A stretch of DNA of 64,000 nucleotides from Candidatus Spongiisociaceae bacterium (GCA_965219685.1 CBDCOH010000002.1:3776001-3840000); one strand, 5' to 3'; shown: positions 34,264 to 44,947, counted from the stretch's first letter. The notes: generated from the letters alone by a model not told the origin. Translations and numbers: made by a program.

Positions 34264-34473
34264 AAGGGGGGTTGACAGTGTCACACCCGCGTCGCACACT
34301 GGAGGCAACCGCAAGCACCATCGGTCCCTTCCGGCGTCGATCGGACCGTGGCGGGATCACATCGTCGAATCCGACCCCGCGAGGGCACAGGGTGTCGCGT
34401 TTCGAGCCTCGGAGGTGGCGGTTGGGGGAGGGCCCACAGGGGATTCTCTCTGGGGCGTTTTTCGCGTTCTCGG
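34264..34473 (+). ncRNA. Candidate structured small RNA gene, copy A (promoter + ~117-nt core + terminator)
   Basis: TTGACA(34272)-17-CACACT(34295). AACCGC-AAG-CACC pairs with GGTG-GCGGTT (34414-34423). Hairpin + TTTTT at 34431-34462. Homologous copy at 44737-44947 (-). Confidence 0.6.
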
Positions 34474-34572
34474 ACAGCAGGCCCCGGAGGGCCGGGTCGG
34501 CCGACACCGGAGTATCCGGACCGCGCTACCGAGACCGGAAACTGCCTTGATCCAGCGTAAGCCACCGGTGAC

Positions 34573-34607
34573 CAACTATCAACTACCAACTATCAACTAG
34601 GAACTAA
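34573..34607. repeat. Heptamer array (CAACTAN x5) abutting the amidase-remnant stop
   Basis: CAACTAT CAACTAC CAACTAT CAACTAG GAACTAA, then stop 34608-34610 (-). Confidence 0.85.
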
Positions 34608-35081
34608 TCAGATCGGAGGGAGCCGATCGATCCACGGGCGGGCCCGCTCGAGTTGAGCAGCCAGCCGGAACAGGAGGGCTTCGTCGGCATAGCGGGTGGT
34701 GAACTGCACACCGATAGGCAGCCCGCCGTCCCAGTGGAGTGGTAGGGACATGGACGGCTGGCCGGTGACGTTCCACAGGGCGGTGTTGGGTACCGCCCGG
34801 AAAGCCGGCTCACCCTGTCTGGCGATGGCACCCAGAGCCTTGTGGCGTCCCCCGAGCCGGATGAGCGCCTTGGCCAACCGCTTGTTGATAGGGGGGTAGA
34901 GGGTGCCGGTCTTCCAGCGCCGGCGGGCGATCGTGGGCTCCACGAACACGTCGTAGGTGTCGAAGAATGGAGCGGTGGACCGCCCTACGTTGCGGATGTA
35001 CTCGAGGGCGGTGATGAAGTCGCCGGCGGTCAGGCGCCGGCCGACCAGGCCGATCAGCCACGACGCAGCCTGCGGGCAGAT
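34608..35081 (-). pseudogene. 5'-truncated amidase (C-terminal ~158 codons only)
   Basis: FFDTYDVFVEPT, NTALWNVTGQPSMSLPLHW.GGLPIGVQF, DEALLFRLAAQLERARPW. In-frame stop at 35082-35084 upstream; catalytic N-terminal region absent. Confidence 0.8.
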
Positions 35082-35226
35082 TCATGGTGGGTGCCGATGG
35101 GGGAAGGAGGGTCAGCAGTTGGGCGCAACGCTAGGCGGATGACCGCCCGATCCGATCCCGGGCGAAGGCTAACATTCGACTCGGCATCCGACTACCTGTG
35201 GATCCACGGTCGCTCTGAGGGAGATT

Positions 35227-36018
35227 ATGGAGCAAGCGGCGCGCAAACCGAGACTGACCGTACCGCTGTACCGCATCTACGAACGTCGCCTCCTTCGCCG
35301 CCTGGATCTTCAACGCCTCCCCCGGCACATAGGCATCATCCTCGACGGCCACCGTCGCTATGCTCGCGCCGAGGGTCTCGACACCTACACCGACAGCTAC
35401 CGGAGCGGGATGCGGAGGCTCGAGGAGTTCCTCGGGTGGGCAGCCGAGTTGCCCATTCCGCTGATCACCGCATGGGTGCTGTCGACCGAGAACCTGGATC
35501 GACCGGCGGAGCAGATCGATCCCTACTTCGACACCCTACGCGAGATGTTCGAACGGGTTCCCGCCCACGCCGGTCGCCTCGGCTACCAACTCAACGTCAT
35601 CGGGAGCCACGATCTCCTTCCGGCTCGTCTGGTCAGCAGCGCCAAGCAGGCGATCGAGGCGACGAAGTCCGGCTCGCGGCAGTTGACCATCGCCATGGGT
35701 TACGGAGGCCGCCAGGAGATAGTCGACGCATGCCGCGATCTCGTTGAGGGTATGGCGGCGCGCGGGGTCTCCGCCGACGACATGGCGGAGCACGTCGATG
35801 CGCAGGCCATCGCCGCCCATCTTTACGAACCCGACCAGCCGGACGCCGATCTCGTTATCCGGACGTCGGGCGAGTCACGGCTCTCAGGGTTCCTCCTGTG
35901 GCAGGCGGCCTATGCCGAGTACGCATTCGTGGATGTCTACTGGCCTGCCTTCCGGCGGGTGGACTTCATCCGGGCTTTGAGAGACTACGCAGCCGCCGAC
36001 CGCCGTTTCGGGAGGTAG
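35227..36018 (+). CDS. cis-prenyltransferase (UppS / Z-isoprenyl diphosphate synthase family)
   Basis: PRHIGIILDGHRR, LSTEN, YGGRQEI, DLVIRTSGESRLSGFLLWQ. Confidence 0.93.
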   Translation: MEQAARKPRLTVPLYRIYERRLLRRLDLQRLPRHIGIILDGHRRYARAEGLDTYTDSYRSGMRRLEEFLGWAAELPIPLITAWVLSTENLDRPAEQIDPYFDTLREMFERVPAHAGRLGYQLNVIGSHDLLPARLVSSAKQAIEATKSGSRQLTIAMGYGGRQEIVDACRDLVEGMAARGVSADDMAEHVDAQAIAAHLYEPDQPDADLVIRTSGESRLSGFLLWQAAYAEYAFVDVYWPAFRRVDFIRALRDYAAADRRFGR

Positions 36019-36178
36019 GTCGGATTCTTCATAGGTCCCGACAGCAGACCTAGCAGGACTGCGTTTGTCCTTGATGACTGTAGACTGGGGGTTTGGGGAA
36101 GGAGGGTTTCCGTACGGGAGGGCTTTGCCCGTCGGACCACATACGTCCGCGCATGGTGTCCGGAAGAGGGAATGTCCT

Positions 36179-36241
36179 CACCATTCACCATTCACCATTC
36201 ACCATTCACCACCCACCACTCACCACCCACCACTCACTACC
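36179..36241. repeat. Heptamer array, 9 units (CACCATT x4 then CACCACY) upstream of pyrE
   Basis: Direct reading of 36179-36241. Confidence 0.9.
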
Positions 36242-36257
36242 TTGGTAATCTGGCGGT

Positions 36258-36833
36258 GTGACCCTTTCCGCCGTTCAGGCAGCCGTCGCCCATCACCTCC
36301 GATCCAACGCCGTCAGGACGGATGGCCCGTTCGTGCTGCGGTCGGGAAAGGTGAGCGACTGGTACCTCGATGCTCGCCAGACCACCTTCAGCGGCGAAGG
36401 CGCCCTCCTGGTCGGCGCCGCGATATGGGAGCAGCTGATAGAAGCGGACGCAGTGGGAGGGATGACCATGGGAGCGGATCCCATTGCGGTCGCCACCGCG
36501 ATGCACGCCACGGGCCAGGGGAGACAACTCAAGGCTTTCTCCATCCGCAAAGCCGCCAAGGGGCACGGGACCGGAGGCCGTCTCGTGGGGCCGGTACGGG
36601 CAGGTGACCGGATCGTGATGCTGGAGGACACCGTGACGACGGGAGGAACCCTCCTGGAGGCCATCGAGGTCGCGGCAGGCGAGAGCCTCCACGTCGTGCA
36701 GGCGGTGGTCCTGGTGGACCGGTCGCGCGGGGAGGCCGGCCGGCTGATCTCGGCACGGGGGATCCCGTACACGGCAGTTCTGAGTCCGGAGGATCTGGGC
36801 CTCAGCGAGGATCGACCGGGGAGCCCCGCTTGA
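36258..36833 (+). CDS. pyrE: Orotate phosphoribosyltransferase
   Basis: FVLRSGKVSDWYLDAR, RKAAKGHG, PRPP motif LEDTVTTGGT. Confidence 0.93.
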   Translation: MTLSAVQAAVAHHLRSNAVRTDGPFVLRSGKVSDWYLDARQTTFSGEGALLVGAAIWEQLIEADAVGGMTMGADPIAVATAMHATGQGRQLKAFSIRKAAKGHGTGGRLVGPVRAGDRIVMLEDTVTTGGTLLEAIEVAAGESLHVVQAVVLVDRSRGEAGRLISARGIPYTAVLSPEDLGLSEDRPGSPA

Positions 36834-37510
36834 GCGAGTACGAGATAGCGACGCGGCCCCGACTCCCGGCCCGCTGGTATCTGTTCCTGATGGGGCTGAT
36901 CATGGTTCTCCAGGGTGGAGGCGTCCTGTTCGGATGGGCCCCCGTTCCCCGCATCCTGGAACTGCTGTACCCGAACAAGGAGCCGCCGGCATTCGAGAGC
37001 CGCGACCTCACCTGGGCCTGGGTCTTCCTGATCGTCGGTGGGGCGCTGCTGGCCTGGATGATCGTCCGCCTCGCCGGGCGCCGGCAGGTCATCCGCGCGG
37101 ACGCGGAAGGTGTTCACCTTCCACTAGGTCCCCTGGGACGGCTGACCCTGATTCCGTGGGGTCAGGTGGGAGAGGTGGAGACCCGGGAGGGTTCGGACGA
37201 TTTCGGAGCGTTTCCCGTCCTGCTGGTCGGGGTGGAGGACGCGAGACTGTTTCCCCGGCGGCCGTGGGGAGCGCGATGGTCAGACGGGGGAGTGCTCTCA
37301 ATCTCGGCGGAGGGGTGGGCCGTCGACCCGGCCGGGGTGGTCGAGCACCTGCAGGAGGTGCGGATGGCGCATGCAGGATTGTCCGAAGACGAGGCCGAGC
37401 TCCAGGATGGAGCCGATAGGGTCCGCACGGACCGGGACCCGGCGACCGAGGCGGAGGAAGGGGAAGCAGTCCCTGCCGGGGCGGAGCACACGGAAGGCCA
37501 CCCGGCGTGA
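36830..37510 (+). CDS. Hypothetical membrane protein (2 TM + PH-like region, acidic tail)
   Basis: Coupled by 4-bp overlaps to pyrE and nfo; two hydrophobic helices. Confidence 0.7.
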
Positions 37511-38268
37511 TCACCCTGGGCGCCCATGTTCCCTCCGCCGATCCCTTGGCCGAGGCCGAGGCGCGGGGCGTCGGCGCCGTCCAGTTGTTCCTGGGCAATC
37601 CGCAGTCGTGGAAGAAGCCTCCGCCGAGAACCGATGCCTCCGAGCTCCGTGGCTCCGGCATCGACATCTACGTACACGCGCCGTACCTGGTCAACGTCGT
37701 CAACCGGAACAACCGCGTCCGCATCCCGAGCCGCAAGATCCTCGCCAACACGGTGGAGGGCGCCGAACAGATAGGCGCGGCCGGCGTCATCGTCCATGGG
37801 GGACATGTGACCAAGGACGAACGGGTGGATAACGGTTTCCCGCGCTGGCGCAAGGCCCTGGAGACGCTTGAGACCGACATTCCTATCCTGATCGAGAATA
37901 CGGCCTCGGGTGACAACGCGCAGGCCCGGCGGCTGGATCACCTGGCGCGGTTGTGGGATGTGATCGGGGATCTCGGCCCGGGCTTCTGCCTCGACACGTG
38001 CCACGCTTGGGCGGGTGGTGAGCCGCTGGAAGGCCTGGTGGAACGGGTCCTCGAGGCAACCGGCCGGATCGACCTCGTACACCTCAACGATTCTCGCGAC
38101 CGCTTCGACGCTCGCCGGGATCGCCACGCCAACCTGGGCCGGGGCCACATCCCCGGCCAACTCCTGGTGGAGGTGGTGAAGGAAGCCGGCGCACCGCTGA
38201 TCATCGAGACTCCAGGCGACGCGGAGCAACACCGAGCGGATCTCGCCTGGTTACAGGATCGGCTCTAG
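37507..38268 (+). CDS. nfo: Endonuclease IV (AP endonuclease)
   Basis: [44 protein letters not shown]. Confidence 0.93.
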
Positions 38269-38356
38269 CCCCGGGCCGCCGAATTGTCTGTCGCCGGTGT
38301 CGGGCTGCCACGACAGTTCCGCCGCAGATCCACCGAGCGCATGTGCCGGTGGTCCG

Positions 38357-38626
38357 ATGCGCCGGGGTGACGGGCCCAGAGCAGTGAGGGTCCGTCTGTG
38401 CGTGGCGGTCATGGTGATGTCTGCACTTCTCGGTGCCTCCTGCAGGAGTGAGGCGCCCAGGAGCGACCTCGAGTACCTGGTCTGGGAGGTGTGCCGCCAG
38501 GTCAGAGCCGAAGGAGCAACGCCCGATCAGGTAGAGGGCATTCTCCACGACGCCTCGCGGCACGGAGCGGTGATGGCGTTGATCGAGGCCGAGTGCGGCG
38601 AAGAGATCGCGGCCTTCTACGACTGA
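38357..38626 (+). CDS. Small putative lipoprotein
   Basis: Hydrophobic stretch with LGASC lipobox, plus a Cys pair in the mature part; start uncertain. Confidence 0.5.
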   Translation: MRRGDGPRAVRVRLCVAVMVMSALLGASCRSEAPRSDLEYLVWEVCRQVRAEGATPDQVEGILHDASRHGAVMALIEAECGEEIAAFYD

Positions 38627-38630
38627 GATA

Positions 38631-38686
38631 CACCACCCACCATCCACCAATCGACCTACTGGCCACTGGCCACGGGCCACTGGCCG
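38631..38686. repeat. Heptamer arrays at the clpB 3' end (CACCAYN x3; CTGGCCA x4 inside the coding end)
   Basis: CACCACC CACCATC CACCAAT; CTGGCCA CTGGCCA CGGGCCA CTGGCCG encoding the ClpB tail GQWPVASGQ. Confidence 0.75.
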
Positions 38687-41253
38687 CGCTCCAGCGAGAG
38701 GCCCCGGTCGTCGGTGGCGACGGTGACCGTGTCCCCCGCCCTGAACCGTCCGTCGAGCAGTCCGAGTGCCAGCGGATCGAGCAGGGCGGTCTGGAGTAGG
38801 CGCTTCAGCGGCCTGGCGCCGTATGCCGGGTCGTAGCCCTCCGTCGCGAGCCATCGGCCCGCCTCATCGGTCAACTCCAGCTCGATGCCCTGACCGCTGA
38901 CCCGTTCCGCGAGCCTGGCGAACTGGATATCGACGATCTGGCGAAGGTCGTCCTCGGTGAGGCGGGAGAAGACGATTATGTCGTCGATCCGGTTGAGGAA
39001 CTCCGGTCGGAAGTGGTGCCTGACCACTCCCATCACCCGGTTCCGGACTGCTTCCTGCGGCAACTCGGGGGTGATCATCTCGGAGCCCAGGTTCGAGGTC
39101 ATGATGAGTATCGAATTGCTGAAGTCGACCGTCCGACCCTGACCGTCGGTCAGCCTGCCGTCATCGAGTACCTGGAGCAGCGCGCCGAAGACGTCCGCGT
39201 GCGCCTTCTCCACCTCGTCGAGCAGGATCACAGCGTACGGTCGCCTCCGGACAGCCTCGGTGAGTTGGCCGCCCTCGTCGTACCCGACATAGCCGGGGGG
39301 CGCGCCCAGCAGGCGGCTTACCGAGTGCCTCTCCATGTACTCCGACATGTCCAAACGCACCATCGCCCGCTCGTCGTCGAACATGAAGACCGCCAGCGCC
39401 CTGGCCAACTCCGTCTTGCCCACGCCGGTGGGACCCAGGAACAGGAACGAGCCGATCGGGCGGTTGGGGTCAGCCAACCCGGCCCGGCTCCTGCGGATGG
39501 CGCCGGCAACCGCCGCCACTCCGGCATCCTGGCCCACCACCCGCCGGTGCAGGTGGTCCTCGAGGTGGACGAGCTTGGCCATCTCGCTCTCCATCAGGCG
39601 GGAGACGGGGATTCCGGTCCAGCGGCTCACGACCGAGGCGACGTCCTCGTCGATCACCTCCTCGCTGAGCATGGTCATCACGGACTGCAGTTCGGCCAAC
39701 TCCTGCTCCCGGGCCGCCAGCTCGGAATCAAGTCCGGGTAACACCCCGTACTGGAGTTCGGCCGCCCGTTGGAGGTCGCCGGCCCGGGTAGCGCGTTCCG
39801 ACTCGACCCTGGCGTCCTCGATTTTCTGCTTGGTGGTCCGGATCGCCTCGATCTGGTCCTTCTCGTGCTGCCAGTGGGTCGACAGGCGGTCGAGTTCCTC
39901 GGTGACCTCGGCCATCTCCTCGCGGACGGCCGACAGCCGGGCCCTGGCACCCTCGTCGGGTTCGTTCTGCAGAGCATTGGCCTCGATCTCGAGTTGCCGG
40001 AGCCGCCGCGTCAGGGTGTCGATCTCCTCCGGCATCGAATCGATCTCGATGCGCAGGCGCGAGGCTGCCTCGTCCATGAGGTCGATGGCCTTGTCGGGAA
40101 GATGGCGCGCGGTGATGTAGCGGTCGGAGAGCACGGCCGCGGCCATGAGAGCCCCGTCGGTGATGCGCACGCCATGATGTACCTCGTAGCGCTCCTTCAG
40201 CCCGCGCAGGATGCCCACTGTCTCGTCGATGGTCGGCGGTTCCACCATCACGGGCTGGAATCTGCGTTCCAGTGCGGCGTCCTTCTCGATGTGTTTGCGG
40301 TACTCATCAAGGGTGGTGGCGCCGATCATTCTCAACTCTCCTCTGGCGAGAAGGGGTTTGAGCATGTTGGAGGCGTCCATCGAGCCCTCGGCGGCCCCCG
40401 CGCCGACGATGGTGTGCATCTCGTCGATGAAGGTGATGATGCGCCCTTCGGCACCCTTGATGTCGTCGAGGGTCGCCTTCATGCGCTCCTCGAACTCGCC
40501 CCGGTACTTGGTGCCCGCCACCATGGCGCCGAGGTCGAGCGCCACGATGCGCTTGCTCTTCAGGCCTTCGGGCACGTCGCCGTCGAGGATCCGTAGGGCG
40601 AGGCCTTCGGCGATGGCGGTCTTGCCGACCCCCGGTTCGCCGATGAGCACCGGATTGTTCTTGGTGCGACGGCTGAGTACCTGGATCATCCTGCGGATCT
40701 CGTCGTCCCGTCCGATCACCGGATCCAGTTTGCCGTCGGCGGCCAGGGCCACCAGGTCACGGCCGTACTGTTCGAGAGTTCCCTGCGTCGCCTCTGGATT
40801 GTCGGTGGTGATCCGCCGGGCTCCTCGCACCTCGCCCAGGACGTCGACGATGGCCTGCCGGGTGACGCCCTCATCCCGGAGGAGTGCCCCCGCCCGGGTC
40901 CTGGAGGCTGCGATGGCGAGCAGCAGGTGTTCGACGGAGGTGTAGGTGTCGCCACCGGTGTCCATCTCCTTCTGGGCCGCCTCCAGCACCCGGATGGTGT
41001 CGCGCGAGTAACCGGTCTCCCCGGTTCCGAAGACTTTCGGGAGCGATTCGACGAGGCCGGCGGCCTGCCGGCGCAGGGAAGCGGGAACCACTTCGAGCCT
41101 CGCCAGCAGCGGAAGAGTGATGGTGTCGGGCTGTCCGAGCATGGCGAGCAGCAGGTGGGCAGGCTCGACAGACGGGTGGTTACTCGCCTCTGCCAGATCC
41201 CTGGCCGATACCAGTGCCTGCTGTGACTTCTGTGTGAACCTGCTTGCGTCCAT
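38656..41253 (-). CDS. clpB: ATP-dependent chaperone ClpB
   Basis: Two AAA modules GEPGVGKT and GPTGVGKT, M-domain coiled coil, GYVGY, YGARPL. Confidence 0.98.
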
Positions 41254-41271
41254 CCGCTGCCTGTCTCCTCC

Positions 41272-41292
41272 TGGTGGTTGGTGGTCGGTAGG
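41272..41292. repeat. Short heptamer array upstream of the clpB RBS
   Basis: TGGTGGT TGGTGGT CGGTAGG (C/A-rich on the clpB sense strand). Confidence 0.55.
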
Positions 41293-41388
41293 GACTCACC
41301 TGCCCGTTCCACCCGCTGCCGTGTTCTCCGGATCCCGTTCTTTCCCTACTTGTTCAAACACCGATCACCAGTCAATTATGCCATAAAA

Positions 41389-41409
41389 TCTGAGTCGCTA
41401 TCTATCAAG
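41389..41409 (-). promoter_or_regulatory. HAIR-like HspR operator upstream of clpB
   Basis: Minus strand CTTGATA-N7-ACTCAGA versus consensus CTTGAGT-N7-ACTCAAG; CATAAT -10 lies downstream. Confidence 0.6.
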
Positions 41410-41515
41410 TTTTCGCATCCAGTACTCGTTGCAGGGAAGGCATATGCACTCCTCGGACGATGTCTCCGAGTAGCGTTGCGGAGGGGCTCGGCCGGGCAGG
41501 AGAGGGAGGTCGTCG

Positions 41516-41710
41516 TTGAATTGTTCCTGGTGCGCCGCACCGCTCGCTTACGTCCATGGCCACGGAGCCTGCCTCGACGGGGGCTGTCCGATGTTCGGGC
41601 TCAACCAGGCTGAGTGTTGCGATGGGGAGACCGCCGTAGCGACGGGCGACGGGCGACGGGTGCACCGACGCCTCCTAGAATGCGGTCACTATGAGTTGGA
41701 CCTTCGATAA
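41516..41710 (+). CDS. Small Cys/His-rich putative metal-binding protein
   Basis: GGGAGG RBS before TTG; CSWC..HGH..C-x4-C..CC. Confidence 0.55.
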   Translation: MNCSWCAAPLAYVHGHGACLDGGCPMFGLNQAECCDGETAVATGDGRRVHRRLLECGHYELDLR

Positions 41711-42308
41711 CGGCACCATCCTCACCAAGGCGGCCTTGGTAGGCGAGTACGACAACAATGCCTTCGTGGTGGCTTGCGCGCAGACGGGAAGGGCCGTGGT
41801 GATCGATGCCGCCGCCGAACCCGACCGCGTCCTCGAGTTGACCGACGGTGTGGAGGTCGAGGCCTTGCTCACCACCCATGGGCACTACGACCATCTGAGG
41901 GCCGTAGCCCCGGTGGTGGACGCCCTAGGCGTGCCCTTCCTGCTTCATCCGGCCGACTACGAGTTGGCGGCGCGAACCACTTCGGTCACACCGACCGCTC
42001 TGGCGGACGGGGACGTGATCACCCTGGGGGAGACGAGCCTCCTGACCATGCACACGCCGGGTCACACGCCCGGTTCGGTGTGCTTCCTCAGCCCCGGAGT
42101 GCTCTTCTCGGGGGACACGCTGTTCCCCGGTGGTCCCGGCGCCACCCAGTATGAAGGCGGCGACTTCGACACCATCATCAAGAGCATCAAGCAGCGACTC
42201 TTCACCCTCGATGACGCTACCGAGGTGTACCCGGGGCACGGCCCGAATGCCACTACGATCGGGAAGGAACGCCCCGAATTGCCCGAGTGGATCGCCCGAG
42301 GCTGGTAG
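41691..42308 (+). CDS. MBL-fold metallo-hydrolase (glyoxalase II-like)
   Basis: THGHYDH, TPGHTPGS, SGDTLF, YPGHG. Confidence 0.92.
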   Translation: MSWTFDNGTILTKAALVGEYDNNAFVVACAQTGRAVVIDAAAEPDRVLELTDGVEVEALLTTHGHYDHLRAVAPVVDALGVPFLLHPADYELAARTTSVTPTALADGDVITLGETSLLTMHTPGHTPGSVCFLSPGVLFSGDTLFPGGPGATQYEGGDFDTIIKSIKQRLFTLDDATEVYPGHGPNATTIGKERPELPEWIARGW

Positions 42309-42466
42309 GGGGCAGGGCGCTACACTGGCTCCAATTCCGTTCCGGAGACGCGCGACCTGTTCCCAGGCGGGTGAATTCCGGCGGCGGATCGACAGAAACG
42401 ATTTGCTCTCCGGCTACGGCCGGGAGGTGTCCCCCAACCTCGATGGTGGGGAGAAACGGAGCAGCC

Positions 42467-43390
42467 ATGTCGAACTCGACGTCGAACCACTCCCGCGGCG
42501 CTGCCCGCAAGAAGGTCACCGCGCCCTCGGTCCAGGCCCGCAAGGGCGGGAAGAAGCTCACCATGGTGACCGCCTACGACTTTCCCGGTGGCAAGGTCGC
42601 CGACCGAGCCGGGGCCGACATGATCCTGGTTGGAGACTCGGTCGCCAACGTGGTCCTCGGATACGAGACCACCAACGAGGTGACCCTGAACGACATGATC
42701 CACCACACGGCGGCGGTCGCCCGCTCGCGGCCGAGAGCGCTGCTCATCGGCGACATGCCCTGGATGAGCTTCCACGTCAACCCGGACGAGACCCTGCACA
42801 ACGCCGCCCGCCTGGTACGGGAAGGAGGCGCCGAGGCGGTCAAGCTGGAGGGGGGGGCAGAGCGGGTGGAGATGATCCGCAAGATCCGCTCCGCCGAGAT
42901 CCCGGTGATGGGACACATCGGCCTGACCCCCCAGTCCGTCCACTCGATGGGCGGCTACCGGGTCATGGGTAGGGGGCTGGACGATGCTCGGAGGTTGGTC
43001 AGCGACGCGAGGGCGCTCGACGCGGCCGGGGTGTTCGCTCTGGTGCTCGAAGGTGTTCCCGTCACCCTCGCCCAGGTCATCACCGAGGAGGTGTCGACAC
43101 CGACCATCGGCATCGGCGCCGGACCCCACACTGATGGTCAGGTGCTGGTCATGCATGACCTTCTCGGTCTCAACTTCGGTCACTACCCGAAGTTCGTCAG
43201 GCGCTATGCGGATCTGGCGGAAGAGGCGACCGGAGCGATCACGGAGTGGATCTCCGACGTCCGGACCGGTGGGTTCCCGACCGACGCGGAGTCCTACCAC
43301 ATGATCCAGGCGTCCGCCGAGCAACTGCTGGCGGAACATCGGGAGCGGCGCCCGAAGGCTGAGGGCCCGGAGCTACGCGCCATTCCCTGA
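42467..43390 (+). CDS. panB: 3-methyl-2-oxobutanoate hydroxymethyltransferase
   Basis: MVTAYD, LVGDS, AVKLEGG, GHIGLTPQ, IGIGAG..DGQVLV; ATG 42467 with GGAG RBS. Confidence 0.96.
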   Translation: MSNSTSNHSRGAARKKVTAPSVQARKGGKKLTMVTAYDFPGGKVADRAGADMILVGDSVANVVLGYETTNEVTLNDMIHHTAAVARSRPRALLIGDMPWMSFHVNPDETLHNAARLVREGGAEAVKLEGGAERVEMIRKIRSAEIPVMGHIGLTPQSVHSMGGYRVMGRGLDDARRLVSDARALDAAGVFALVLEGVPVTLAQVITEEVSTPTIGIGAGPHTDGQVLVMHDLLGLNFGHYPKFVRRYADLAEEATGAITEWISDVRTGGFPTDAESYHMIQASAEQLLAEHRERRPKAEGPELRAIP

Positions 43391-43422
43391 ACGAGTTCCC
43401 CGGCGCCCGACCCGTTGACCGG

Positions 43423-44505
43423 TCAGCCGTCCCGCGCCGCGTACCACGGCTCTATCACTCCGGTGACGATCTCGCGGCGCTCGTCCGCGGGCAGGAAGGC
43501 TCCTTCGATCGCGTTGACGGTCAGCTGTCGCAGTTCGTCCCATGACCACCCGAAGGCGGAGCGGCAGCGGTCCAGTTCTCTGGTGAGGAAGGTGCCGCTC
43601 ATCAGCCGGTTGTCCGTGTTCACCGTGACCCGGAAGCCGAGATCGAGGAGGCGTCCGACCGGATGGGTGGAGATTGAGCCGACCGCCCCGATATGCACGT
43701 TCGAGGTCGGGCACTGCTCGAGAGGCATCGCCTCGTCGCGTACGTAACGGGCGAGAGGCCCCAGGCTCCCGTCCTGCTCCATGTCGTCGACGATGCGGAT
43801 TCCGTGGCCGATACGGTCGGCCCCGCATGTATGGACGGCATCCCTGATGGATGCGAGACCGCAGGCCTCGCCGGCGTGGATAGTGAAGGGAAGCCGTGCC
43901 CGGCGCAGCAGTCGGAAGGCGGCGAGGTGCTGCGATGGCGGGTATCCGGCTTCCGCTCCGGCGATGTCGAAACCGACCACTCCCTGATCCCGGTTCCGGA
44001 TAGCAGCTCCGGCGGCATCCAGGCTCCGGGCACCGGTGCGCATGGCCGTCACGAGCGTGCCGACGCGGATGCCTCGTCCCTCACTGCCGTCGCGGAAGCC
44101 GGCAGTAACGGCCTCTACGGCCTGGTCAAGCGAGAGCCCTCCGGCTAGGTGCAGTTCCGGAGCGAAGCGCACTTCGGCGTAGACCACACCGTCATCCGCG
44201 AGATCCTCGGCGCACTCGGCCGCCACCCGGTACAGGGCTCGACCGGTCTGCATGACGCCGAAGGTGTGACGGAACATCTCCAGGTAAAGCTCGAGACTGC
44301 GCCGCCGGGCCCCGGCGCGCAGGTGGGCCGCCAGTGCCTCGGGGTCGTGGGTCGGCAGGTCCGTGTAGCCGGTCGTCTCGGCGAGTTCCACGATCGTGGA
44401 CGGGCGCAGCCCGCCGTCGAGATGGTCGTGGAGCAGCACCTTGGGCGCCCCGCGAAGGCTTGCCGCGGTGGGTAGCGTTCCTCGGCCGGTATCCGGAGCG
44501 GCCAC
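43423..44505 (-). CDS. add: Adenosine deaminase
   Basis: PKVLLHDHLDGGLRP, YAEVRFAP, GFDIAG, TIHAGE, RIGHG, CPTSN, VNTDN; start GTG 44505 after TAGGCT. Confidence 0.94.
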   Translation of the reverse strand: MAAPDTGRGTLPTAASLRGAPKVLLHDHLDGGLRPSTIVELAETTGYTDLPTHDPEALAAHLRAGARRRSLELYLEMFRHTFGVMQTGRALYRVAAECAEDLADDGVVYAEVRFAPELHLAGGLSLDQAVEAVTAGFRDGSEGRGIRVGTLVTAMRTGARSLDAAGAAIRNRDQGVVGFDIAGAEAGYPPSQHLAAFRLLRRARLPFTIHAGEACGLASIRDAVHTCGADRIGHGIRIVDDMEQDGSLGPLARYVRDEAMPLEQCPTSNVHIGAVGSISTHPVGRLLDLGFRVTVNTDNRLMSGTFLTRELDRCRSAFGWSWDELRQLTVNAIEGAFLPADERREIVTGVIEPWYAARDG

Positions 44506-44736
44506 CTGGCGTAGCCTAACCGCGGCCGTGCACGGGCTTCGTCGAGCGATGCCACGGAGTCTTCGGCGGATGGGCTTCGAGCTGAACCCGGAGAGAGGCA
44601 GATCCACTGGCGGGTCGACCTGGCCGGAGAATTGTCGGCCTCGGGCTGGGAACCCTTGGCAGCTCAGCGAACCGCGCAGGGACCCGACCAGCGACTGTTC
44701 GGGAACGTCCACCGCGCCACCAAGGGGCCACACCCA

Positions 44737-44947
44737 CCGAGAACGCGAAAAACGGCCGACCGAAGCCCTGTCGAGGGCCCACCCCCACCGCCACCTCCCC
44801 GGCTTCGAGACGCGTCTCCCTCTCCCCTGAGAGGTGCGACGGCGACAACATGATCCCGGCCATCCGTTCGACGTCGGAAACGAACGGGCGGTGCTTGCGG
44901 CTACCCACAAAGTGTGCAGAAGGCCTGTGACACCGTCAACCCCCTTG
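44737..44947 (-). ncRNA. Candidate structured small RNA gene, copy B
   Basis: TTGACG(44939-44934)-17-CACACT(44916-44911). Shares CCGCAAGCACC, GGAGGTGGCGGT and an identical CGTTTTTCGCGTTCTCGG with copy A. Confidence 0.6.

Follow-up and report, generated by a model that had tools for sequence, protein, structure and literature searches.

What are the two similar, apparently structured repeats that lie in separate intergenic stretches of a Candidatus Spongiisociaceae genome, and how did they come to be there? The window, i.e. the whole stretch of DNA analysed here, comprises 64,000 nucleotides of the source genome (G000, contig C2, positions 3776001-3840000), and the repeats, designated copies A and B, were placed by iterated nhmmer searches of G000 at window positions 34265-34474 (+ strand) and 44949-44736 (- strand). 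As set out below, both are probably relic copies, devoid of terminal repeats, of an IS630-family MITE (miniature inverted-repeat transposable element) with a self-contained small-RNA (sRNA) gene as its cargo.

Layout of the two window copies

Copies A and B were shown to be colinear homologues, with a mean column identity of 79% over 365 columns (flanks included) in a pairwise alignment. Both carry a -35-like hexamer (TTGACA in A, TTGACG in B) separated by 17 bp from CACACT, a closing stem with a 3-nt bulge, in which AACCGC-AAG-CACC pairs with GGTG-GCGGTT (A) or GCCGC-AAG-CACC with GGTG-GCGGT (B) ~100 nt further 3', and a hairpin preceding TTTTT. Since the insertions and deletions (indels) that separate the copies measure 1-2 nt, no reading frame is common to the two. 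All of this agrees with the initial annotation, which had described the two homologues, their promoter spacing, bulged stem and terminal hairpin, and the lack of a shared open reading frame (ORF). The mapped parts are as follows.

34264..34300, +, copy A, promoter-like region (sequence reading and family conservation): GGGGGG, then -35 TTGACA 34272-34277, then -10 CACACT 34295-34300 (sequence reading)
34278-34285, +, copy A, near-invariant GTGTCACA within the 17-bp spacer (family conservation)
34307..34423, +, copy A, predicted RNA core (sequence, covariance model and pairing in 74 sequences)
34307-34312 and 34418-34423, +, copy A, P1a, AACCGC with GCGGTT; bulge AAG
34316-34319 and 34414-34417, +, copy A, P1b, CACC with GGTG
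34322-34327 and 34343-34348, +, copy A, P2, CGGTCC with GGACCG; loop hexamer GGCGTC 34333-34338
34353-34359, +, copy A, junction GGGATCA, followed by P3 (~34363-34399) and P4 (TTCGA..TCGGA, 34401-34413)
34424..34473, +, copy A, 3' part (sequence and family conservation): G-rich linker GGGGGAGGG 34424-34432, terminator-like hairpin 34433-34455, T5 34458-34462 and conserved CGCGTTCTCGG 34463-34473
44911..44947, -, copy B, promoter-like region (sequence reading): -35 TTGACG 44939-44934, -10 CACACT 44916-44911; GTGTCACA at 44933-44926 within the 17-bp spacer
44787..44901, -, copy B, predicted RNA core (sequence, covariance model and loop analysis)
44901-44897 and 44791-44787, -, copy B, P1a, GCCGC with GCGGT; bulge AAG
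44893-44890 and 44795-44792, -, copy B, P1b, CACC with GGTG
44887-44881 and 44870-44864, -, copy B, P2, CCGTTCG with CGAACGG; loop hexamer GACGTC 44875-44870; followed by the GGGATCA junction and the helices P3 and P4
44737..44786, -, copy B, 3' part (sequence and family conservation): G-rich linker GGGGGTGGG 44786-44778, hairpin 44777-44753, T5 44752-44748 and conserved CGCGTTCTCGG 44747-44737

Within the promoter spacer, GTGTCACA exceeds the -35 hexamer itself in family conservation; together with the -35 it forms a near-palindrome (TGAC-N3-GTCA) that may represent a candidate protein-binding site.

A family of about 47 copies in the source genome

The two copies described initially are merely two members of a genome family of about 47 full-length copies. 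BLAST returned ~27 near-full-length matches to copy A in G000, while the iterated nhmmer search converged on 50 matches, 47 of which span more than 170 of the 217 profile positions and were counted as full-length; the conservation table held 48 rows, including one weak fragment, and later analyses used the 47. A covariance model, R1 (176 positions and 37 pairs, built on 29 copies with a structure set by hand), recovered 46 copies. The conserved unit of ~215 bp consists of promoter-like TTGAC-17-CATACT, an RNA core of ~150 nt, and a hairpin with T5, and pairwise identity between copies is 70-80%.

Two subfamilies were distinguished. Subfamily I (29 copies, both window copies included) is marked by GCCGY-AAA-CACC and the loop words GGTACC or GGCGCC, and subfamily II (about 18 copies) by ACC-AAG-CACC, the loop word GACGTC and the motif ACCCAGGAA. 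In G000, 42 of the 47 copies lie outside called ORFs.

Ends shared with an IS630-family insertion sequence

The full element was delineated in G002, a complete genome of the same genus, in which eight near-identical aligned copies define a length of 394 bp, ordered as GTGTCCTGAGTC, a left arm of ~100 nt, the promoter-RNA-terminator unit, a right arm of ~75 nt and GAATCAGGACAC. The promoter-like region of these young copies reads TTGACA-16-TATAAT/CATAAT, and their ends (TA|GTGTCCTGA.TC) are identical to those of a 1174-bp insertion sequence (IS; L237:890-2063), one of four among the five IS loci examined that carry TAGTGTCCTGATTC at both ends (L237, L234, L231 and L232; the five derive from G002, G005 and G006). 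This IS has one ORF of 364 aa with helix-turn-helix (HTH) and DDE_3 domains. MITE and IS have in common no more than a 5'-terminal ~21 bp and a 3'-terminal ~29 bp, and their interiors (~340 bp in the MITE) are unrelated. With ends that match an IS, no transposase gene, small size and many copies, the element family with end-bearing copies is an IS630-family MITE, and the unit is thus the cargo of a non-autonomous element, the one among the options raised in the initial annotation that is borne out.

In G000, both ends are retained by three of the 47 copies (C2:2324511-2324836, C2:3240629-3241018 and C2:3675250-3675700, all outside the window), the right end by 11 and the left end by six, against a chance expectation of 0.03 per site. 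A second conserved module of ~70 nt directly downstream of ten subfamily I copies in G000 was identified as the MITE right arm. The target of IS630 elements is TA within CTAG. Of six full G002 copies, five have TA next to the left end and four next to the right end, and TA borders both ends in two of the three intact G000 copies. In three genomes of genus g7, MITE ends also lie ~40 nt downstream of the top-ranking copies, so that the link between ends and cargo spans two genera (g1 and g7). No MITE ends were detected within 300 nt of copies A and B, no arms or recognisable ends accompany the 17 subfamily II copies, and no consistent inverted ends surround the genus g4 and other copies examined. 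We infer a MITE origin for these end-less copies, A and B included.

The DDE_3 domain (PF13358) yielded 14 matches in G002 and is present in six of the 29 genomes of the family (f1); it was not found in G000, nor in any of the 12 genomes of genus g7, and RNA-unit copies persist in genomes without a DDE_3 match. A search of G000 with the 12-mer end, allowing two mismatches, gave chance matches in coding DNA besides the MITE copies, and no autonomous IS.

Fold and covariation of the RNA core

In plain MAFFT alignments the two subfamilies are misaligned, and RNAalifold accordingly recovered hardly any consensus from them (10 pairs); the structure was therefore set by hand on the 29 subfamily I sequences. 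Pairing was then assessed in two sequence sets. Set 1 comprised 74 sequences aligned to R1 (46 from G000 and 28 from relatives), drawn from 75 sources, one of which (L036) had no match at an E value of 0.001. Standard pairs occupied 82.4% of cells, compared with 76.5 ± 0.4% in shuffled alignments and 34-56% in slid controls, and both-side changes occurred at 30 of 37 pairs, compared with 17.1 in shuffles; none of 500 shuffles reached the observed values. Set 2 comprised 94 sequences from other metagenome-assembled genomes (MAGs), taken from 100 of at least 109 pattern-matched loci, and gave 80.0% paired cells (73.1% in shuffles) and double changes at 29 of 37 pairs, again with none of 500 shuffles reaching these values. 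Paired cells by helix, in sets 1 and 2, respectively, amounted to 94.7 and 93.0% for P1a, 97.6% in both for P1b, 95.8% (with double changes at all seven pairs) and 94.5% for P2, and 88.3 and 91.1% for inner P3; in set 1 the values for outer P3, middle P3, P4 and the terminator were 72.9, 68.6, 74.3 and 63-67%. Covariation thus supports P1 and P2 in both sets. On the strand bearing the promoter-like sequence, 99 of the 1114 cells in P1 and P2 are G-U and 17 are A-C, an excess which places the structure on the strand with the promoter and T-run.

Two competing pairings were identified for the segment 3' of the conserved GACGCG: backward, to the beginning of P3 (strong in subfamily II, e.g. CGGAGC/GCUCCG), or forward, to form the hairpin P4 (strong in the core of subfamily I, UUCGAA..UUCGGA). 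For both, native partners exceeded permuted ones, the native value being reached by one and none, respectively, of 200 permutations (62 of 74 rows, the other 12 lacking the anchors). A further candidate pairing, between GACGCG and the CGCG behind the terminator, was rejected, as copies with an internal GCGCAUG still keep CGCG outside and no covariation is seen.

These results refine the fold proposed in the initial annotation. Its closing stem is retained. A three-way junction is too simple, as the arrangement comprises P1, P2 and a long P3, to which is added either P4 as a fourth helix or an alternative base of P3. The first of its two inner arms (CGGCG/CGTCG) is no stem, but a self-complementary hexamer in the P2 loop, and the second corresponds roughly to the base of P3, where the two alternative pairings compete.

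A co-varying palindrome in the P2 loop

The P2 loop, mostly 14 nt in size, was analysed in 73 of the 74 rows of set 1 (one row lacks P2). A self-complementary 6-nt word, with G-U allowed, was present in 72 of these 73 loops, compared with 38.8 in shuffled loops, and a palindrome of Watson-Crick pairs only in 62, compared with 13.3. The words are GGUACC (29), GACGUC (23), GGCGUC (6), GGCGCC (5), GGUGCC (3) and a few others, and in the series GGUACC, GGUGCC, GGCGCC, GGCGUC, GACGUC each neighbour is one wobble-forming substitution away from the next. Such a word cannot pair at its centre within one molecule, as the central letters are adjacent and the middle pair would enclose two bases. The simplest reading would be loop-to-loop pairing of two RNA molecules.

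Insertion polymorphism and conservation of the RNA unit

G000 and its closest relative, G007, carry the element at both loci, A (behind pepP) and B. Locus A is empty in G002, G004, G005 and G006, and locus B in G002. Four G007 elements, at four loci with high-scoring copies, have no syntenic flanks in G000; these loci overlap in two pairs or derive from overlapping or separate contig ranges (L092/L245 and L242/L070), so that the distinct G007 copies may be as few as two or three. The intergenic stretches at A and B measure ~390 and ~540 nt in G000, compared with ~77 and ~34 nt in G002, and beyond the 215-bp unit further intergenic DNA (window positions 34474-34611 and 44400-44736) is absent from G002.

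Divergence along the element was compared among six young G002 copies, the remaining two of the eight aligned copies (L223 and L226) being left out for their truncated arms. Mean pairwise difference was 0.16 in the left arm, 0.12 in the promoter, 0.038 in the RNA core, 0.068 in the terminator and 0.21 in the right arm; the RNA core thus diverges four to five times slower than the MITE arms. When G000 is compared with G007 orthologues, identity over the element's 5' half reaches 0.96 at locus A and 0.89 at locus B, compared with 0.51, 0.63 and 0.69 for non-coding flanks, and the segment from P1 to the GGGAUCA junction has no substitution at either locus. In 17 subfamily II copies, sharp conservation borders were observed at ACAAGGGGGTTGAC (-35) and TTTTCGCGACCTGG (just past the T-run). 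The low divergence of the core, these abrupt borders and the compensatory changes within stems of copies that are 70-80% identical would be indicative of purifying selection on the RNA unit rather than on the transposon, and point to selection acting on the RNA.

Distribution across genomes

R1 matched 21 of the 28 other genomes of family f1, i.e. all seven of genus g1, all three of g4 and 11 of the 12 of g7, with dozens of copies in each positive genome and at least 45 scored candidates in most. No match was obtained in the genomes searched from f1 genera g2, g3, g5 and g6, in 32 genomes from eleven other families of the same order, or in 140 genomes elsewhere in the class Acidimicrobiia. At least 109 stretches in public genome contigs match an exact pattern of the element; among the matches listed, all titles are those of Acidimicrobiia, Ca. 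Spongiisocius/Spongiisociaceae or unclassified 'bacterium' MAGs, many with sponge- or coral-style isolate names. Within the genomes searched, the RNA family is therefore seen solely in one Acidimicrobiia family of sponge and coral metagenomes. Many G001 copies are located at contig ends, where near-identical repeats would be expected to break an assembly.

Known RNA classes

The initial annotation had recognised no match to 5S rRNA, tRNA, SRP, tmRNA, RNase P or 6C in these copies, and comparison with Rfam 15 bears this out: no family, be it 5S, SRP, 6S, tmRNA, RNase P, 6C, Y RNA, HEARO, raiA or another, reached its gathering threshold over the whole window. At E values up to 10, one chance row was returned for the two loci and six chance microRNA (miRNA) or internal ribosome entry site (IRES) rows for 20 further copies, the best chance row scoring 23.3 bits against a gathering score of 69 (miRNA, long non-coding RNA and IRES rows). 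Together with the copy counts and covariation, this sustains its description of a multicopy, structured promoter-to-terminator unit outside Rfam.

Several of its functional suggestions found no support. A bacterial Y RNA was rejected, as TROVE/Ro60 (PF05731) is present in none of the 29 family genomes, while Deinococcus and Bacteroides controls matched. For an antitoxin RNA, no conserved ORF is indicated, as indels among copies are not multiples of three, and a coding or type I toxin reading was rejected solely on that basis. A guide RNA is not supported either, since the partner is a DDE transposase and the copies show no single-stranded segment of variable sequence that could serve as guide; omega RNA (TnpB/IscB) and IS110 bridge RNA were set aside on the same grounds (partner DDE_3, no hypervariable single-stranded stretch by the scaffold), TnpB, IscB and IS110 genes elsewhere in the genome not having been searched for. 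Two further candidates were rejected. For a CsrB/RsmZ-type or Hfq-dependent sRNA, CsrA (PF02599) and Hfq (PF17209) were each found in none of five sampled genomes, with controls matching, and for antisense control of the transposase, the best complementarity between MITE and IS (17 nt at 88%, E value 0.16) is at chance level.

Variant copies, adjoining repeats and contig C1

Seven or eight G000 copies start at CGTGTCACA and thus lack the -35 (GGGGGTTGAC), with no TA ahead of the break (e.g. C2:943460, 1192414, 1920173, 2221593, 3883162, 3897421 and 3908328, outside the window); provided that transcription of the RNA takes place, they may be without a promoter. Two copies (C2:3675250-3675430 and ~3908530-3908650, outside the window) carry an insert of ~55-90 nt between the -35 and the GTGTCACA spacer, composed of short tandem repeats with GGAGGACGG / GGACAACGG units and flanked in one copy by a repeat of GGGTTGTCCG, which resembles a secondary insertion or duplication.

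Two G002 MITE copies are directly adjoined by another dispersed repeat, ~165 bp long and unrelated to the MITE (L222:816-982 and L224:258-442). Numerous copies of this repeat, 74-87% identical, occur in G000, G007 and G001, in G000 for instance at C2:2794549-2794722, 1389329-1389513, 77480-77646, 1395443-1395608, 2146499-2146665 and 2898632-2898778 (outside the window). Contig C1 of G000 (30,458 bp) has a G+C content of 59.2%, compared with 65.3% for the chromosome, and may be a plasmid, phage or contamination, the contamination estimate being 5.9%.

Proposed origin and alternative explanations

According to the explanation that we consider probable on balance, an IS630 transposase would have spread the unit in trans by TA-targeted cut-and-paste transposition, after which the arms would have decayed upon immobilisation or loss of the transposase, while selection retained promoter, RNA and terminator. 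Each unit would be transcribed into an RNA of ~150-165 nt, from ~7 nt past the -10 through the U-tract. The 6-nt palindrome would allow two such RNAs to join loop to loop, and the conserved junctions (GGGAUCAU and GACGCG) and the single-stranded G-rich linker GGGGGNGGG could bind a partner in trans. A more far-reaching version, which we put forward tentatively, is that the copies constitute ~50 working paralogues of a new structured-RNA class, seeded by the transposon and each kept by selection after its ends decayed, self-pairing through a palindromic kissing loop and serving to scaffold a ribonucleoprotein, to sponge up protein or RNA, or to act in catalysis or ligand binding. If true, this would be a bacterial counterpart of the spread of RNA genes by Alu and other short interspersed elements (SINEs), but by a DNA transposase.

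A number of observations weigh against a relic MITE with an RNA gene as cargo. Concerning transposition, most copies are end-less, including all of subfamily II and both window copies, and no clean empty site was found for the end-bearing G002 copies, the flanks of which either have no match in G000 and G007 or lie 1.8-2.0 kb from each other there, so that TA duplication is presumed from the flanks and the habit of the IS family. Concerning transcription, which is predicted from promoter and terminator consensus alone, a simple consensus promoter scan flagged neither A nor B, as CACACT agrees with TATAAT at three of six positions only, and a terminator scan flagged copy A (stem 34437-34452 plus tail) and not copy B. 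Concerning structure, the folding energies of A and B are not better than those of dinucleotide shuffles (z scores of +0.79 and +1.01, with ~0 for the opposite strands), P3, P4 and the terminator are merely 58-75% paired in both sets, and the base of P3 has two rival pairings, neither of which is favoured; moreover, both covariation alignments were fitted to the model and are biased toward it, and the shuffle control overstates significance because the paralogues are related. Concerning selection, the orthologue comparison covers two loci, and the partly coding left flank of locus B, at 0.86 identity, is as conserved as the element. Finally, G019 (genus g7, 96% complete, two contigs), which also lacks a DDE_3 match, is without any copy, the sole such genome of the 12 in g7, which indicates that the RNA is dispensable there and speaks against a host-essential role.

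The opposite order of events would make the host sRNA family older and primary, with one member captured between IS630 ends, so that solely the young subfamily I clade would be a MITE and the window copies would never have been. The lack of ends in at least 33 of the 47 G000 copies (including all 17 of subfamily II as well as A and B) and around the g4 copies examined would fit such an order, as would the finding that end-bearing copies score highest and are most alike. Without terminal inverted repeats, however, the unit needs another route to ~40 intergenic sites, and none was seen; retro-copying of the transcript does not account for it, as the units hold the promoter. In two genera the unit is found with identical ends, and its presence varies among species of one genus. 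We regard this order as unlikely.

An ordinary selfish MITE, in which an RNA has no function, conservation and pairing stem from recent descent, gene conversion or DNA hairpins, and the likeness to promoter and terminator is incidental, was likewise considered. MITEs often fold and bear promoter-like sequences (PMC3184786, PMC10969869), and the unexceptional folding energy, the absence of all copies from G019 in a positive genus, and the inflation of shuffle controls by kinship of the paralogues are in keeping with this. On the other hand, P1 and P2 are 93-98% paired with both-side changes even though copies are 70-80% identical, the arms diverge faster than the core within the same copies, sharp promoter and terminator borders persist where arms are gone, and the G-U over A-C excess fixes the strand. 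Gene conversion is further disfavoured by the ~21% difference between A and B, each of which is conserved with its own orthologue. Taken together, a functionless element has a low probability.

A portable cis-regulatory cassette controlling downstream read-through is very improbable: although promoter, multi-helix (aptamer-like) fold and intrinsic terminator stand in the order of a transcriptional riboswitch or attenuator, CGCGTTCTCGG just past the T-run is conserved and the segment after GACGCG has alternative pairings, the downstream gene is convergent for 32 of the 47 copies and the upstream gene co-directional for 29 (counted from the ORF table of a crude caller based on third-position G+C, GC3, with 2844 ORFs covering 69% of the contig), a pattern that suits a tolerated insertion or independent gene rather than a leader belonging to the gene downstream, the downstream genes share no recurrent class, and in young copies the MITE right arm, not a gene, follows the terminator.

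Comparison with known systems

A literature search, supplements left aside, returned no description of the present element. Among the systems that resemble it in part, RUP of Streptococcus pneumoniae is a high-copy, intergenic MITE for which mobilisation by an IS630-type transposase has been proposed; it measures ~107 bp and is not known to contain gene-like cargo, in which it differs from the present element. The dimerisation initiation site (DIS) of human immunodeficiency virus 1 (HIV-1) carries a 6-nt self-complementary word in an apical loop, with GCGCGC and GUGCAC variants related by paired changes. Its likeness to the GGUACC/GACGUC loop concerns the mode of action only, as the molecules are unrelated, the loop is larger here, and dimerisation of the present RNA is a prediction.

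MITEs with sigma-70-like promoters include Correia, MITEAba12, BrickBuilt, QMITE1 and SonMITE_1 (PMC3184786, PMC10969869). Of these, QMITE1, together with QMITE2, gives rise to the Coxiella burnetii sRNAs CbsR3, CbsR13 and CbsR16, whose role is described as unknown (PMC10969869). The present element resembles the QMITEs as a bacterial MITE with sigma-70-like promoters, and differs from them, as they are described there, in that its cargo, known here from its sequence, forms a complete promoter-to-terminator unit with a co-varying multi-helix fold that outlives the ends and occurs in three genera. The bcr1 element of the Bacillus cereus group is similarly a dispersed mobile repeat (~155 bp) whose distribution differs between related strains and which is transcribed, with an RNA-level cruciform kept by compensatory changes (PMC3184786). 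Unlike bcr1, which is described as a two-hairpin cruciform flanked by 5-bp direct repeats (PMC3184786), the present element has IS630-type ends, TA flanks, its own promoter-like and terminator-like sequences, and a closing stem with helices. Neisseria Correia elements (CREE/nemis) are likewise high-copy MITEs with functional sigma-70-like promoters and element-linked small transcripts, and their promoters are described as driving transcripts of neighbouring DNA rather than of the element (PMC3184786, PMC10969869), whereas the promoter of the present element points inward and a terminator closes the unit.

The RNAs of promoter- or sRNA-bearing MITEs are few and poorly understood so far (PMC3184786, PMC10969869). 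In the present case, dozens of sites appear to have received a complete, complex RNA gene by way of a DNA transposon, with the RNA part outliving the transposon part, which would provide a clear example in nature of how mobile DNA can give rise to a new multigene RNA family. The element also contributes a candidate class of RNA that is absent from Rfam and restricted to one Acidimicrobiia family without cultured members, for which the MAG titles suggest sponge and coral sources, and its loop predicts RNA dimers. What sets this element apart from the known sRNA- or promoter-bearing MITEs is its closed promoter-to-terminator unit with a multi-helix fold, the retention of that unit after loss of the ends in genomes lacking the transposase, and its co-varying palindromic loop.

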